Positions 1-5,700 of a stretch of 5,700 nt of DNA are shown here, one piece after another. Position numbers and translations under genes: made by a program. The number at the start of each line of letters is the position of its first letter. The stretch's first letter is position 1. The stretch covers positions 1 to 5,700 of IMG/VR virus record IMGVR_UViG_2778261535_000007; one strand, 5' to 3'. The notes under the pieces are model-generated. The model was not told the origin of the DNA. It ran no database searches and worked only from the letters and a program-made list of their open reading frames with translations. The stretch is from a virus. Lineage: Duplodnaviria > Heunggongvirae > Uroviricota > Caudoviricetes.

Positions 1-1434
1 ATGCTGTCTTTAGAAGATAGATTAAAGTCATGTGGTACAATAGAATTGTATAATGAGAAAGCTAAACAACATAATGTAATAATAAAAAACACGGAGGATG
101 CATTAAAAAAAATAATTTCAAGAATCAACACCGCTCAAGAATTAGTATCTTCAATTGAAAATAATTTCAGTATATATCGTTCTAAAAAACAGGATAAAGG
201 AAAGAAAAAGAACGCCTTCGAGCGGTTGATGAACTCTATTAAGGTAGAAAAGGAATTATTTGTTGAGGAAGTGAAATATAATAATTTTCTAAAGGGTTTA
301 AATAAAGAATATGAAGAATTTTATAAGGCGGCTTATGATTTCAAAAGAACCAAAGAGTTGCAGATTCTTGCTGGAATAAATAATTCTATAGTGCATTATT
401 ATAATGAAATAAATAAACATGATGACGATAGCGAAAAATTGAACGATATATCGTTTGTTTATGTTGAGTCTTTGAAATCATATCGATTACAACTTGATAT
501 CAACGGTGTTCCGGCTGATGCTTTTGTTAGACTGTCCGAGGGACATCTTAAATCATTAGGGCTGGCAATACTTTTAGCATTGGCGAAAAAGAAACAATCT
601 CAATTTATTGTTTTCGATGATGTAGTTAATGCTATAGATACTGAGCATAGGTCTAATATAATTAATACATTCTTAACTGATCCGTATATTAAAAGAACAC
701 AAAAGATAATCACCACTCATGATAAATTGTTCTGGGAATTGTATAGCAATCGAGAAAAGAGTTTAGGTAATGGGGAGTTCTCAAGTTTTATTCTTGAGTG
801 CTATCCTCATGGAATTCATTTTGAGGAGCGCGATATTTCCTTTGAGGGAAAAATATCAGAAAGTTTAGAACACTATGATATTCGGCAGGCGCTTATTTAC
901 TGTCGTATCTGGTTTGAGTCATTAGCAACCGAACATTGTGTAGCGTCAGAATTAAGTCTTACAGCAAGTTTTACTAACAGGGATTATGTAAAGCCAAATT
1001 TACTTAAAGTTAGTTTGGAGAAAATGTACGCGGTACTTATTGGTTCTTTAGGCGATAGATTGGAAAATATTAATGAAATTAAAAATAATTTTTTGAGCTG
1101 GGGGATACAAAATCAGGAACACCATGCTTTTAGCGAAAATAACTATAATATAATTCATTCCAAGACTAGCCAGGAAATACAGGTTATATTTGATTCGATT
1201 AGGAAGTTTAAAATACAACTATCACCAACAGTTAGTCTTGTTAGTTTGACTGATCAACTTTTATCACTAAATGATAAAATAAATGCCATTGAAAATAGAA
1301 TTCAAAGTGCCAATCCTGCAGTTCCAGTGGATGTTATTCGAAAATGGAGTAATGATAAATCTAGATTAGTGAAAGAAAAAGAAAAAGTAGATGAGTTGAA
1401 GGTCTATTGTGAAAGCTGTATCCCTCAAGTTTAA
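1..1434 (+). CDS. ABC/SMC/RecF-like ATPase, C-terminal part (5'-partial at window edge), fused to an uncharacterised ~230-aa C-terminal domain; candidate anti-phage defence protein
   Basis: Uninterrupted 477-codon ORF ending in TAA at 1432..1434. It contains an ABC signature-like motif LSEGH (nt 532..546), a Walker B-like FIVFDD (nt 604..621), a D-loop-like AID, and an H-loop-like KIITTHD (nt ~703..723). No Walker A/P-loop lies N-terminal to these within the window, so the true start is probably upstream and the ATG at position 1 probably internal. The N-terminal ~170 aa are Lys/Glu-rich and helical-looking. GC is about 28-30% (counted on the first 60 nt), against >50% in the adjacent phage genes. 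Confidence 0.7.
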   Translation: MLSLEDRLKSCGTIELYNEKAKQHNVIIKNTEDALKKIISRINTAQELVSSIENNFSIYRSKKQDKGKKKNAFERLMNSIKVEKELFVEEVKYNNFLKGLNKEYEEFYKAAYDFKRTKELQILAGINNSIVHYYNEINKHDDDSEKLNDISFVYVESLKSYRLQLDINGVPADAFVRLSEGHLKSLGLAILLALAKKKQSQFIVFDDVVNAIDTEHRSNIINTFLTDPYIKRTQKIITTHDKLFWELYSNREKSLGNGEFSSFILECYPHGIHFEERDISFEGKISESLEHYDIRQALIYCRIWFESLATEHCVASELSLTASFTNRDYVKPNLLKVSLEKMYAVLIGSLGDRLENINEIKNNFLSWGIQNQEHHAFSENNYNIIHSKTSQEIQVIFDSIRKFKIQLSPTVSLVSLTDQLLSLNDKINAIENRIQSANPAVPVDVIRKWSNDKSRLVKEKEKVDELKVYCESCIPQV

Positions 1435-1444
1435 AATTAAAATC

Positions 1445-1465
1445 AAGCCCCGTTTTTCGGGGCTT
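1445..1465. terminator. Bidirectional intrinsic terminator hairpin between convergent genes
   Basis: Perfect 8-bp GC-rich stem AAGCCCCG (1445..1452) / CGGGGCTT (1458..1465) with a TTTTT loop. On the minus-strand transcript the stem is followed by GAUUUUAAUUUUA; on the plus-strand transcript by GGUUAUAUUAAUU. It lies 10 nt after the stop of the + gene (1432..1434) and 2 nt after the stop of the - gene (1468..1470). Confidence 0.6.
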
Positions 1466-1467
1466 GG

Positions 1468-1794
1468 TTATATTAATTGATTACTGAGTAGATCCAACGC
1501 AAGTTGTTTTTCTTCCGGCTTAAGTCGGTCAATCAGGAATTTAACCAGCTTGTTGCCGGTCAGCCCGCTGGGGCTGAGGGTATGTGAAAACTGGGCGTTA
1601 AAAACAAAGGTGTGGCCGCATTCAACTTCCGTGCAGGCGCAGTATAAATCAGCCAGTTTTTTGTCTTTCCAGTCAGATTTACGAATGATGGCCGGTGAGC
1701 CGCATTCAGGACATTTAATTTTAAAAACTCGCATGTTCACCATCCCGCACGCCATTGCTAACAATGGGGATGATTTTAACTTAACTGCGCTCAT
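1468..1794 (-). CDS. Ogr/Delta-family C4 zinc-finger protein (putative late-gene transcriptional activator)
   Basis: The protein carries C-P-E-C, then 22 residues, then C-X4-C (CPECGSPAIIRKSDWKDKKLADLYCACTEVECGHTF). This C-X2-C-X22-C-X4-C spacing, with a conserved Y before the third Cys and TF after the fourth, matches P2 Ogr / P4 Delta as I recall them. Its ATG (1794..1792) overlaps the portal stop codon (ATGA). The real start could instead be an internal Met (for example MRVFKIKCPECG), giving about 88 aa. Confidence 0.7.
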   Translation of the reverse strand: MSAVKLKSSPLLAMACGMVNMRVFKIKCPECGSPAIIRKSDWKDKKLADLYCACTEVECGHTFVFNAQFSHTLSPSGLTGNKLVKFLIDRLKPEEKQLALDLLSNQLI

Positions 1795-2852
1795 TTTTCG
1801 CCCTTTTCGGTGGTAATTGTCGGGATATCCACGTCAAAAACCAGGTGCAAGTGTGCGGGGATCTCCGGGTCATTGTTGACGCCGTTCATTAGCTTGCGCT
1901 GCAAGGGGATAACTTCATCCTTGCGATAGGTTGTGCGGGCGGTTTCAGGGTTTCCCATTACCGCGCCGTTGGTCGGGATGATACCCGCCAGGCCAGCGGG
2001 GAAACGGTGGGCGGTAAAGATATCCTGTGCGGTGATCCCTTTGATGTTGGCAAATTCATCCTTTGCGCTGACTTCGCCCACTGGCATGATTTTAACCCCT
2101 TCCGGGTCGCCCTTCGGGATGTTGATAAACATATTGCGGAAGTTACCCAGCCCTTTGGACTGGGCGATCTTCTCTTTGATTTCGTTTTCCATTTCCAGCG
2201 TCAGATTGGGATCGCTGGTATAGAGAATAAAGCCCATGTGCGCCCCGTTATTGTAGTAACGGCGCCGGAAGATGGTTGCCTCACTGTTGAGTAACACCGA
2301 ATGGATGCCGCCGATATAGTCAGGCAGGCCATATACCTGCTGGCGCGGGTCGTACATTTTAAAAAAGACGATGTCTTCCGGGTCATAGATAAGCGCTGGC
2401 CCTTCCTGCAGAACAGCAAACGACCCGTCTTTTCGGCAGCGCAGATACAGCGACGGCAGCGGCATCAGGTCGATCACTTCCCCGAATACGTTACGAATTT
2501 TCAGAATCGCGACGTCACCAAATAGCATGTAATCAAAGACAGCCTGTTCGACCAGGTCAGGTGTCAGGCCGCCGCCGATGTAGCCACCGGCCACCATATT
2601 GCGCCGCGCATACAGTACCCCGCCGTGCTGGCCGTTAAGGTTCGGCAACTGGGCCAGCGCCAGGCGATCAATCGGAAGTCGCCAGTGGTCATACTCATTG
2701 TCATACCAGATATTGTGATAATCCGTGCCGGTCGTCAGGATGGGTTCGGGTTCGCCAAATGTGATCACGCTTCCGCGCCCTGGCGTGAAGGTTTCAACCT
2801 TGTTGCCGATCATGGACCTGAATTTTTTATTATTACGCTGTTTCTTTGTCAT
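1791..2852 (-). CDS. Q: Phage portal protein, P2 gpQ-like
   Basis: 353-aa ORF with conserved P2-family portal blocks as recalled (YGLPDY...LLNSEATIFRRRYY.NG.H.GFI, KG.GNFRN.F...P, EVSAKD.F.NIK). It lies immediately downstream of and overlapping the terminase ATPase gene, the same P-then-Q order as in P2. Confidence 0.93.
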   Translation of the reverse strand: MTKKQRNNKKFRSMIGNKVETFTPGRGSVITFGEPEPILTTGTDYHNIWYDNEYDHWRLPIDRLALAQLPNLNGQHGGVLYARRNMVAGGYIGGGLTPDLVEQAVFDYMLFGDVAILKIRNVFGEVIDLMPLPSLYLRCRKDGSFAVLQEGPALIYDPEDIVFFKMYDPRQQVYGLPDYIGGIHSVLLNSEATIFRRRYYNNGAHMGFILYTSDPNLTLEMENEIKEKIAQSKGLGNFRNMFINIPKGDPEGVKIMPVGEVSAKDEFANIKGITAQDIFTAHRFPAGLAGIIPTNGAVMGNPETARTTYRKDEVIPLQRKLMNGVNNDPEIPAHLHLVFDVDIPTITTEKGEK

Positions 2853-4660
2853 GCTGCTTTCCCAAAATACCAGCCCGATGGGCGGTCATATTCGTGATCG
2901 ATAGGTTCGTTAATTATGGCGTGCGAGATAGCGAAGAAAACATCTGCATGGCCGGTCGCGTCTGAACGTTCGGCAACAAATGTCAGCGCGTTGCCGCTGT
3001 TGGTTGTTGTGCGTCGGATAGCCATAAAGCTGGCCGGAATTTCGACGCGCTCTTTGTTCGTTTCGTCTACGGCGTCTTTTGCCCATTCGATGCGTTTACG
3101 CTCGACAACGTCGATCATCTTCATTACCAGACGGTTTTTGCTTTCGACGCTGTAAAGAATGGGTGTGGCTTCGCGCGGTGCAAACTTGCTGACCAGGTCA
3201 TAAACGCCCTTACCTATGCCGGTTGTATCGATCCCGATGTAAGTGATGTTAAAGCGGCGCATAAGCAGCTTTATCTGGTCGGCCTGCCAGCTGAAGTTAA
3301 AGCCCTGCCATTGCCAGACGGCCAGCACGCGGAAGCGCTCGCCGTCCTCTATGGGGGGCGCGATTAACACAAAGGTGGAGTTGTCGCCGGATCGTGACGG
3401 GTCGAAGCCTGCCCATACTTCGCGATTGCCGAAGGGCCGCGCAGCGGTCAGATCAAAGTCGCCCCATGTGGCCCGGTCCACTTCACAGCCGACAAGCGCG
3501 GAGAACTTGAACACCGCGTCCTTACTGTCAACGAACTGGCACATGTAGAGCATGGCGAACGCGGTCGGGCTGTATTTGTTGCGCAGCCGTTCAATATCGA
3601 CAAGCGTACCGAGGCCACCTTCGATAGCGTCTTCCATCGTGATGATGTAGCGCCAGATCTGGTCCGGGCAGAGAATACCCTGGCCCATTTCGCTTTCTGT
3701 CGGGAACTCCACACCTTTGCGTTTCGGGTCGTCCCCGCGCCAGGCTTCGCCAGTCCAGACCGGGTAAGCCTGGTGCGTTTTCGCGCTGGGCGTCGAAAAG
3801 TAGGTCGTCCGGTATTTGTTATGCGTTGCCATTGCGCTGGCAACTTCGTGCAGGCGCGTGAATTTCGGGATCCAGAAAACCTCATCGCCATACAGGTGGC
3901 CGTTAAAGCCCTGTGCTGTGCTGGCGTTCGTGGACAAAAAGCGCAGTATTGCGCCGTTACTGAGGCGGATATTTTTACCCGTCAGCGTCACGCCGAAATG
4001 GTTCTGGGCGATCTGGACGATGTATTCGCGGAAGATTTCCGACTGGGATCGGCTTGCAGAGAAAAAGACCTGGTTATCACCGGTAATGACAGCATCTTCG
4101 AATGCTTCCCAGGCGAAATAATAGGTCATACCCACCTGGCGGCTTTTCAGAATGAAGCGCCAGTCTTCGCCTTTATGTTCGCGGCAGTGCAGCTGGTACT
4201 CGAAGAGATGTTCCCGCGCCCAGGTGTCGAGCATTTCCGCTGTAATACCGGAAACGTCGTTTTTCTTATACCGGCGCTTTCTTTCCCCAGGTTCCCCGCC
4301 TGCGCTGCTGAGGCAGTACCCTTCACCATCATAAGCCGCTTTCTGGGCCTGAATTTCTGCCAGCTTTTCGGCGTGCTTGTTGCGCTGCGCCATGAGTTTC
4401 ACATGGTGAGCAATCAGATCGCGCAGTTCTTCCAGTTCCAGCGCTGTTTTTTTCTCGCGGCGGGAGAGCTGGTCGATACGGCGGGCGATGACATTTTCCA
4501 CCGATTCAACAGGCAGCAGTGATGCCCACTTCCCGACGTCAGCCCAGTGGTAAATTGTACGCGGTGGAATATTCAGTTCCTGCGCAATATCTTTCGGCGT
4601 CCAGCTTTTTATATAAAGCGTGCGGGCCGCTTCTTTTAATTCATCGGAATATTTAGCCAT
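2849..4660 (-). CDS. P: Terminase ATPase (large) subunit, P2 gpP-like
   Basis: 603-aa ORF of typical size and position for P2 gpP, divergent from the scaffold gene. Its stop overlaps the portal start by 4 nt. The N-terminus looks helix-turn-helix-like (TPKDIAQELNIPPRTIYHW). Confidence 0.92.
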   Translation of the reverse strand: MAKYSDELKEAARTLYIKSWTPKDIAQELNIPPRTIYHWADVGKWASLLPVESVENVIARRIDQLSRREKKTALELEELRDLIAHHVKLMAQRNKHAEKLAEIQAQKAAYDGEGYCLSSAGGEPGERKRRYKKNDVSGITAEMLDTWAREHLFEYQLHCREHKGEDWRFILKSRQVGMTYYFAWEAFEDAVITGDNQVFFSASRSQSEIFREYIVQIAQNHFGVTLTGKNIRLSNGAILRFLSTNASTAQGFNGHLYGDEVFWIPKFTRLHEVASAMATHNKYRTTYFSTPSAKTHQAYPVWTGEAWRGDDPKRKGVEFPTESEMGQGILCPDQIWRYIITMEDAIEGGLGTLVDIERLRNKYSPTAFAMLYMCQFVDSKDAVFKFSALVGCEVDRATWGDFDLTAARPFGNREVWAGFDPSRSGDNSTFVLIAPPIEDGERFRVLAVWQWQGFNFSWQADQIKLLMRRFNITYIGIDTTGIGKGVYDLVSKFAPREATPILYSVESKNRLVMKMIDVVERKRIEWAKDAVDETNKERVEIPASFMAIRRTTTNSGNALTFVAERSDATGHADVFFAISHAIINEPIDHEYDRPSGWYFGKAA

Positions 4661-4837
4661 GCGGCTATTATGGCGGGATTATTTTGCGGAATTGATAATT
4701 AAATATCGGTAAAAGGTGGCTATTCAGTTATAACCGAATACATAAGAAATAAAGCGGTCGCGCTGTTTTAATCAATTCGCAATACTGACCACCACAAACG
4801 AATCATTGTTATTTAAATTTATTATTAAAGGTCAGTT
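4661..4837. promoter_or_regulatory. Divergent late-promoter region between the P-Q operon (leftward) and the O operon (rightward)
   Basis: 177-bp AT-rich intergenic region between two divergent start codons, at the position of the P and O late promoters in P2. It contains an imperfect Ogr-box-like dyad, TGT-N12-GCA, at 4764..4781 (consensus TGT-N12-ACA) and an AAAGG Shine-Dalgarno 6 nt before the ATG at 4838. No clean -35 is seen, which is expected for activator-dependent late promoters. Confidence 0.45.
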
Positions 4838-5700
4838 ATGCCGCAACCTCATTACCGCACGGATTGGCTATGTATTGCCACATCTGGACAGGCTGTGGAC
4901 GGTCGCACCATTGAACCGCAATGGTTGATTGATGCGGCAGAAACCTACACCCGCAAAACCTACACGGCCATGATTTGGCCGCACCATCCGCAATGCGATA
5001 TCAGCGAACGTGAATTTACCTGCAATCTGGGGGAAGTGGACGCGCTGAAAGTGGAAACGGAAGGTGATGTCACGAAGTTATATGCCCAGTTAATCCCGAA
5101 TCAATTTTTAATTGAAGCCAATCGGCAGGGGCAAAAGTTATTTACGTCAGCAGAATTTGTCACTGATTTTGCAGGCAGTGGTCGTGAATATCTTTTTGGG
5201 CTGGCTGTGACGGATATTCCGGCAAGTCTGGGAACGGAAAAACTTAAATTCGTTTTAGCCGGTGAAGAAAAGGACGCCGAGCGCGGGAGTCTGGAAACAT
5301 TCAGTTTAGGAAAATTACAGACAAGTAAACCGGATAAAAAAAATTCTTTCTGGTCGCGTTTATTTTCGGCCAGTAAAGATTTTACGCCAACCCCAGAGCC
5401 AAACACTGATAAGCCCACCGAGGGCGACGGAGAAAAAATGGAAGAATTAAAAGCGCTCATTCAGCAAATGCTGGATCTGCTTAAAAGCGGTAAAGACGCC
5501 GCAACGGGTGATGCTGACACGGTTGATACCCCGGAACAGGCCGCTGATGTGGTGGCAGATGTTGCCGCCCAGATCGCTGATGCGGCCGACGAGGTGGCTG
5601 AGCTGGCGCAGGACGTTATCGAAAACCCGGAAGACGAAGTCAAAGCGGAAGAATTCAGCGCCGCCAAAGCCAACCTGGCAAAAGTCATGAAGTCATTCAA
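4838..5700 (+). CDS. O: Capsid scaffolding protein, P2 gpO-like (3'-partial, runs off the window)
   Basis: ATG at 4838 preceded by an in-frame TAA (4826..4828) and an AAAGG SD. I translated the frame by hand and found no stop through 5700 (287 codons). It is absent from the ORF track apparently only because it has no stop in the window. The Ala/Asp/Glu-rich C-terminal part and its position divergent from P match gpO. Confidence 0.85.
   Translation, partial: MPQPHYRTDWLCIATSGQAVDGRTIEPQWLIDAAETYTRKTYTAMIWPHHPQCDISEREFTCNLGEVDALKVETEGDVTKLYAQLIPNQFLIEANRQGQKLFTSAEFVTDFAGSGREYLFGLAVTDIPASLGTEKLKFVLAGEEKDAERGSLETFSLGKLQTSKPDKKNSFWSRLFSASKDFTPTPEPNTDKPTEGDGEKMEELKALIQQMLDLLKSGKDAATGDADTVDTPEQAADVVADVAAQIADAADEVAELAQDVIENPEDEVKAEEFSAAKANLAKVMKSF

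Follow-up and report, generated by a model that had tools for sequence, protein, structure and literature searches.

The window analysed here is a 5,700-nucleotide (nt) stretch of viral DNA (IMG/VR record IMGVR_UViG_2778261535_000007, positions 1 to 5,700), and the feature in question is a rise in GC content near its left end, between an AT-rich gene and the packaging genes of a phage. Judged by its sequence, the window is part of the head module of a P2-like (Peduoviridae, Irrigatiovirus-like) Escherichia coli prophage. Positions 1 to 1434 of the plus strand encode the 3' 477 codons of a predicted Rad50/SMC-like protein of 941 amino acids (aa; Pfam SMC_N), referred to below as the cargo; window position 1 corresponds to codon 465 of its gene. 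A GC-rich hairpin follows at 1444 to 1466. Beyond it, on the minus strand, lie an Ogr/Delta-like zinc-finger gene (ogr, 1468 to 1794; Pfam Ogr_Delta, E = 2.6e-17) and the conserved core, with a gpQ-like portal gene (1791 to 2852; Pfam Phage_portal, 97-99% identical in relatives) and a gpP-like large terminase gene (terL, 2849 to 4660; Pfam Terminase_5, Terminase_6N and Terminase_6C). The 5' part of a gpO-like capsid scaffold gene (4838 to 5700, plus strand; Pfam Phage_GPO) completes the window.

Salmonella phages SW5, SW3 and SI7 (Peduoviridae, Irrigatiovirus) are 98% identical to the window across 1485 to 5700, and of 5,426 complete E. coli genomes, 19 contain prophages that are 97.3% identical to it across 1483 to 5700. 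Five contigs (L071 to L075), found by an exact-protein look-up with the Ogr of the window, match it over its entire length with 99.7-99.98% identity. The full cargo gene, recovered from these contigs, is the sole gene of a segment of ~3.2 kb with 31-32% GC. L071 is 99.8% identical to the window; its genes run from gpA over 339 nt to the cargo and, after another 33 nt, on to ogr, portal and terL, and Pfam also finds Phage_GPA in it. The wider order in contigs of this type is int - cI - cox - ... - fil - Dam - gpA - cargo - ogr - portal - terL - gpO - gpN - gpM, and phage genes (gpA, Dam, cox, cI, int) hence reach leftward more than 10 kb beyond the cargo, to the integrase. As phage genes flank both sides, the AT-rich stretch lies inside the prophage, between gpA and the packaging operon, and represents an internal cargo slot rather than a prophage end.

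Composition step and right-hand junction

An earlier note on this DNA, made from the sequence alone, had described a sharp GC boundary, a few tens of base pairs wide and centred on the hairpin, and had read it as a variable-cargo insertion point next to a conserved phage module. The step is real. A fit of one change point over the window separates 31.7% GC on the left from 51.9% on the right and peaks at 1514, where the log-likelihood rises by 93.4; this gain averaged 2.6 (maximum 9.1) in 500 mononucleotide shuffles and 11.1 (maximum 32.2) in 500 shuffles of 100-nt blocks. Its centre and width, however, differ from those proposed. The likelihood surface of the change point is flat from about 1440 to 1550, and in 50-nt windows the GC content remains at 0.34-0.42 up to 1549 and first reaches 0.58 from 1525-1574. 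Hence, the transition is ~100 nt wide, is not centred on the hairpin and ends to its right, within the 3' end of the zinc-finger gene.

The gene-by-gene estimates of the note agree with the measured values. The first 60 nt of the window have 28.3% GC (28-30% estimated), the zinc-finger gene has 44.6% (about 45%), and the portal and terminase genes, put at more than 50%, have 53.2% and 54.6%, respectively. The sliding-window and codon-usage analysis that it had proposed gave a GC content at third codon positions (GC3) of 26% for the cargo gene portion (1 to 1434; 31.5% GC) vs 64-66% for the portal and terminase genes. Relative to the remaining 22 prophage genes, that of the cargo lies 3.6 standard deviations lower in GC and 3.2 lower in GC3. 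As a control, relatives were inspected at the equivalent place: the step is absent where the slot is empty or has a GC-normal filling (L024, L021, L001) and present, at 1330 to 1514, where it holds another AT-rich filling.

The hairpin itself was confirmed almost exactly where the note had placed it (1445 to 1465), with a stem at 1444 to 1466. It has the sequence CAAGCCCCG-TTTTT-CGGGGCTTG and occupies the 33-nt gap between the convergent stop codons of the cargo gene and ogr. The stem is a perfect 9 base pairs (bp), extendable to 12 pairs across 1441 to 1469, and includes 7 G-C pairs; it folds with -23.4 kcal/mol (z = -6.2), which was not equalled in any of 200 shuffles. T-runs are found on the minus strand (ATTTTAATTT) and on the plus strand (ATATTAATTG), the minus (late-operon) strand having the better one. 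With its GC-rich stem-loop, its T-run and its position at the end of a transcription unit the hairpin is terminator-like on both strands in the sense of rho-independent termination. Because it lies between two convergent stop codons, and by analogy with the tQ terminator of P2, it looks like a putative bidirectional intrinsic terminator. P2 tQ is likewise a GC-rich hairpin that ends the late P-Q operon at the border of an accessory region, but it is annotated after Q, while the hairpin in the window follows ogr, is shared with a convergent cargo gene and varies in sequence with the class of filling. In the empty and GC-normal classes a different hairpin, AAAAAGCCCGC-TTGAT-GCGGGCTTC (AAGCCCGC..GCGGGCTT), is located directly 3' of ogr, and the convergent AT-rich fillings each have a distinct hairpin of their own. 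A cargo gene from Erwinia with 77% identity to that of the window has the same stem (AAGCCCCG/CGGGGCTT) downstream, with a different loop, which suggests that the hairpin travels with the cassette in this lineage.

DNA homology to all relatives, both the Salmonella phages and the E. coli prophages, ends at 1483-1485. In an ungapped comparison with the nearest core relatives, anchored at the ogr stop codon, 21 mismatches were counted in 1468 to 1527 vs 30 in the following 1,025 nt. They form a cluster at 1471 to 1525 with a clear direction, as at 17 of the 21 sites the window has A/T and the relative G/C, while the encoded peptide is nearly unchanged (...KPEEKQLALDLLSNQLI vs ...KPEERQFALDLLNGQTA). 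This AT-directed cluster suggests that the last ~19 codons of ogr (1468 to 1525, minus strand) belong to the imported or mosaic segment. The sequence comparison thus places the true breakpoint at about 1510-1525, within these codons, in agreement with the GC change point at 1514; it would be inside ogr, ~45-60 nt to the right of the hairpin. Across the filling classes, the final 60 nt of ogr and the filling are correlated in GC content (Spearman 0.66, p = 6e-4); the mean for the ogr tail is 0.44 beside AT-rich fillings and 0.57 beside others. One variant tail pattern is common to several unrelated AT-rich fillings, and the tail in the window matches it in part.

Contents of the slot in related prophages

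To characterise the slot, 66 viral-contig loci with related portals were collected, gpA and ogr were located in each, and the intervals between them were compared; filling classes were counted among the 48 loci with portals at least 82% identical. These 48 loci contain 22 classes that mutually lack DNA similarity, in addition to that of the window. The interval measures 123 bp in L020 and L024, which are the cleanest empty sites, and reaches 3,419 bp at most. The GC content is 32-36% in fillings of at least 1.5 kb and 48-59% in short or empty ones, and cores with 97-99% identity carry different fillings. In the distant loci c5, c9, c18 and c20-c22 the gpA match has only 37-54% identity and stops short of the C-terminus, which makes the coordinates of the gpA stop unreliable; their apparent intervals of 12 bp and 27 bp were excluded from the evidence.

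The fillings are enriched in anti-phage systems, with neighbouring classes that match PDC-S20, PDC-S06, NsnA/PD-T4-2, AbiC/AbiP and HEPN. They comprise a KAP NTPase (PADLOC PDC-S20), an AAA_13 ATPase (PDC-S06), two versions of a GmrSD_N and HEPN combination (NsnA/PD-T4-2-like), NACHT with AbiC/AbiP, an Exo_endo_phos nuclease, a MazF-type toxin pair and, in SW5-type loci, a D12 methylase. One locus (L031:11585-12640) encodes Hcp (T6SS_HCP, E = 8.5e-34) and a protein with a Tlde1 domain (E = 2.1e-31); this is a type VI secretion effector cargo and not an anti-phage one. For several large filling proteins no match was found. In E. coli GN06156 (L002:4931-7723), RM13322 and GF31, three of the 19 genomes, which were examined in this respect, the slot contains one such gene, with 32% GC, for a protein of 925-930 aa without a Pfam, PADLOC or NCBIfam match.

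The cargo gene of the window was found in none of the 70 related loci searched by tblastn. Nor was it detected in the 5,426 complete E. coli genomes, even when these were searched with distant-blastn sensitivity and although 19 of them have the core, and it is absent from 50,697 phage records. The earlier note had stated that its reading would fail if related prophages all carried the same low-GC gene on the left; the comparison found 22 unrelated classes, empty sites included, among loci with portals at least 82% identical, and both the variable cargo and the conserved module to its right are supported. The term insertion point fits less well: a cargo boundary does adjoin the conserved module, but transposon-type repeats are absent, and the site is better described as a replacement slot.

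Taken together, the GC step very probably marks the right end of the accessory (defence) hotspot that lies between gpA and the portal gene in this P2-like E. coli prophage. Published work (Rousset 2022, PMC9122126; Moura de Sousa 2026, PMC13586616) has described the gpA-gpQ interval as the principal defence hotspot in phages of the P2 type. In E. coli, 1,650 arrangements were described in 18,150 gpA-gpQ loci (PMC9122126), and contents are swapped very rapidly, with almost no linkage to the core genes (PMC13586616). The boundary is an instance of this published hotspot, and the phenomenon as such is known. The two have in common the position between the replication endonuclease and the portal, a hypervariable content in near-identical phages and the frequent presence of defence genes. 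The old/tin locus of P2, reportedly treated by Odegrip et al. in 2006, shows a similar contrast in GC content (A 53%, tin 33%, old 35%, Q 53%). Unlike in P2, an ogr/Delta gene is appended to the portal operon in this Irrigatiovirus-like subgroup, and the conserved right flank is therefore ogr rather than Q plus cos. In Yersinia relatives without the ogr insertion, a 441-nt spacer with 52% GC separates the cargo from the portal gene.

In the mechanism that we propose, diverged P2-like phages would exchange fillings through homologous recombination within the conserved sequences on either side. The right crossover would fall within the last ~20 ogr codons, at ~1510-1525, and a diverged AT-rich ogr tail would be imported together with the cargo. 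The hairpin at 1444 to 1466 would stop convergent transcripts, keeping a lysogenically expressed cargo and the late operon from mutual read-through.

Some observations fit less well with a defence hotspot that is swapped in this way. The AT-rich classes c2, c3 and c12 retain a GC-rich ogr tail, and homologous recombination is something that we infer from mosaic patterns in the sequences. The P2 hotspot adjoins cos, while the P2 cos 19-mer and cos region gave no match in L071 or the relatives. For the cargo itself, PADLOC matches of the full protein are weak and partial (mad3, LmuB, AbiLi), NCBIfam contains no model that matches it, and a promoter scan upstream of the gene gave matches no more frequent than in shuffles.

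Neither PMC9122126 nor PMC13586616 discusses composition, terminators or breakpoints inside the flanking genes, and no mention of ogr, terminators or GC content was found in the latter. As this instance shows, raw sequence is enough to locate such slots by a simple step in GC content. The modest new points here are the unclassified single-gene SMC-like cargo, which is also present in hotspots of P4 satellites, and the AT-shifted ogr tail that accompanies AT-rich cargo. The extension of the variable segment into a flanking core gene bears on the mechanism of cassette swapping, which was left open by PMC13586616.

The cargo gene and competing explanations

The sources of the 941-aa cargo protein (P0050) give it no name beyond 'AAA family ATPase [Escherichia coli]'. 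Pfam and PDB sequence searches with the full protein returned generic SMC_N/AAA_23 matches only. Its AlphaFold (AF2) model has a confidence score (pLDDT) of 82, and the top Foldseek matches are Rad50, SMC heads and Lamassu LmuB; by this model the cargo is a Rad50/SMC-like ABC ATPase. A Walker A motif is located at ~aa 117-125, and the signature, Walker B and H-loop motifs at aa 642-705 (aa ~178-242 of the part encoded in the window). The ABC-type head is split by a long antiparallel coiled coil with CPLC at its apex, where C374 and C377 are invariant in the family (CPxC, aa 374-377). Additional helical domains are found at the N-terminus (aa 1-80) and the C-terminus (aa ~745-941). The C-terminal one is all-helical and conserved, with the invariant motif W831..QNQEHHAF841..N847..H850; searched alone (pLDDT 84), it gave no significant structural match and only a weak hint of HEPN.

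With Lamassu LmuB, Rad50/SbcC and SMC proteins the cargo shares the ABC head split by a coiled coil, and its CxxC resembles the zinc hook of Rad50. It differs from Lamassu in being a single gene without an LmuA-type effector or an LmuC/kleisin partner and in its extra helical domains. The match to the LmuB profile is limited to aa 84-156, 73 N-terminal residues, and there is no partner open reading frame between gpA and ogr, which led us to reject an assignment to Lamassu. P2 Old, an ABC ATPase with a TOPRIM domain, likewise fills this slot as one AT-rich gene; the window cargo, in contrast, contains a long coiled coil and could not be related to Old by sequence, and an assignment to the OLD-family nucleases was rejected, as neither Pfam nor PADLOC yielded a TOPRIM or OLD match. 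By description only, it can also be compared with 'Toga' (PMC13586616), a single protein from a P4 hotspot with SMC and Gao_Ppl Foldseek hits that was missed by DefenseFinder and PADLOC. None of the SMC_N-containing fillings in the tables of Rousset 2022 (PMC9122126) could be linked to the cargo gene.

Homologues of the cargo occupy the same gpA-portal slot in prophages of Erwinia tasmaniensis (77% identity), Lelliottia amnigena (62%) and Yersinia enterocolitica (47%). The family is thus found in the P2 slot of four genera (loci including L076, L077 and L079), which identifies the gene as a recurrent resident of the slot and not a one-off import. A homologue with 39% identity is located between integrase and delta in a P4-like satellite of Pantoea (L083:6001-8802), and one with 33% identity adjoins an integrase and a KAP NTPase in Pseudomonas. 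As P2 and P4 are reported to almost never share defence genes (PMC13586616), sharing of this family between them would be old rather than recent. Its members reach into Firmicutes and Bacteroidetes, with a GC content of 25-56% that tracks the host; hence, a low GC content is not imposed by the protein.

Judged by its genomic context, an anti-phage role of the cargo is most likely, and it would act as a single-protein system. The SMC/Rad50-type head, the coiled coil and the CxxC hook would sense foreign DNA, while the conserved C-terminal helical domain would serve as effector or regulator. This widespread, unnamed family of ~940-aa SMC/Rad50-like ATPases, recurrent in phage and satellite hotspots, is a good candidate for a new single-gene defence system. 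It is possible, if somewhat less than an even bet, that the 941-aa gene is the founding member of an unclassified anti-phage family of single Rad50/SMC-like proteins, characterised by a zinc-hook coiled coil and the W..QNQEHHAF motif and distributed over P2 and P4 hotspots across Enterobacterales and Pseudomonas islands, and that the last ~20 codons of ogr, with their GC-rich and AT-rich variants, form a portable recombination arm travelling with the cassette.

The strongest competitor accepts the junction and assigns the cargo another function, either in the service of the phage (DNA repair, replication or genome maintenance) or in some other form of lysogenic conversion. In its favour, the cargo has the fold of ATPases from DNA repair or chromosomes, it lacks a strong match to any defence model, and the slot also holds Hcp with Tlde1 and a methylase. 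The gene is, however, dispensable to the phage, since close relatives do without it. The recurrence of the family in both the P2 and the P4 hotspot and in an island linked to an integrase also speaks against a non-defence role, as does the report that most previously untested genes of such hotspots were protective once cloned (PMC13586616). We consider this alternative unlikely, though it is the one that deserves most weight.

Slightly less probable still is that the low GC content stems from a low-GC donor whose DNA arrived very recently and has yet to drift to the composition of the host, and that AT-richness is not a maintained property of the hotspot cargo. The host-tracking GC content of the family makes a low-GC origin plausible. 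Against a recent import, the enterobacterial homologues in the slot all have 29-32% GC despite identities of only 47-77%, in phages of 50-56% GC, and unrelated slot fillings as well as P2 old and tin share the same 32-36%. That the cargo has stayed AT-rich while diverging so far favours a long-lived, AT-rich pool of accessory genes over fresh imports.

A sharp change in composition next to a hairpin can also mark the scar of an insertion, and the boundary might accordingly be a transposon or site-specific insertion, or a prophage end (att site). We regard this as very improbable. The phage genes that continue more than 10 kb to the left, to the integrase, are incompatible with an end of the prophage. 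Inverted or direct repeats bracketing the 3.2-kb segment were not found, the segment contains no transposase or recombinase gene, and no tRNA was detected; a transposon or insertion sequence (IS) was ruled out on the lack of repeats and transposase. The breakpoints inside ogr, moreover, vary by tens of nucleotides among the filling classes, a misfit with the fixed target of site-specific insertion. Weakest of all, and close to being dismissed outright, is the proposal that the left gene is a conserved low-GC core gene of the phage lineage and that there is no cargo junction: homologues with 47-77% identity and 29-32% GC do occupy the same slot in Erwinia, Lelliottia and Yersinia, but the gene is missing from the 70 related loci, from the 19 E. 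coli prophages with a 97% core and from the genome and phage collections searched, and its place is taken by 22 other fillings or by none.

Left edge of the slot and neighbouring genes

On the left side, outside the window, homology to the relatives stops 55-56 nt past the gpA stop codon, just beyond a conserved hairpin (L071:13470-13525, 5-50 nt after the gpA stop and ~1.7 kb left of window position 1) that marks the left edge of the hotspot. This hairpin has a 20-bp stem and a 4-nt loop (AATCNCGC...GCGNGATT). Among 21 distinct sequences, compensatory changes were found in 10 of the 20 pairs and 94% of cells are paired; none of 500 shuffles reached the observed pairing, and slid controls gave 28-55%. 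G-U pairs on the gpA-sense strand suggest a structure at the RNA level. No Rfam family corresponds to the hairpin, which could be a terminator or stabiliser of gpA or else serve as a site for packaging or replication. CTGCGGG comes next, and then a second small hairpin, GCGGGC-GGCAAAGA-GCCCGC. Rfam scans of the window and L071 and a tRNA scan of the window gave no match.

To the right of the slot, ogr lies directly 3' of the portal gene in all 48 close relatives. Its start overlaps the portal stop codon as ATGA (1791-1794), which suggests translational coupling to the late operon. Translation may, however, begin at an internal ATG, at 1734 rather than 1794, and the RefSeq annotation in E. coli prophages is a shorter version of 91 aa. 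In P2, ogr sits elsewhere, under its own promoter. An activator of late genes encoded within the late operon would create a positive feedback loop. The terminase and scaffold genes are divergent, and the 177-nt gap between them (4661 to 4837, 34% GC) presumably holds both late promoters. The dyad of P2 Ogr-type late promoters, TGT-N12-ACA, does not occur in this gap; its sole match in the window is inside terL and equals the chance expectation.

Further to the left in the prophage, between fil and cox (L071:18156-18987), two small genes for proteins of 159 and 115 aa have 39-40% GC, compared with a prophage mean of 53%. PMC13586616 mentions a second, integrase-primase accessory spot, to which this region probably corresponds.

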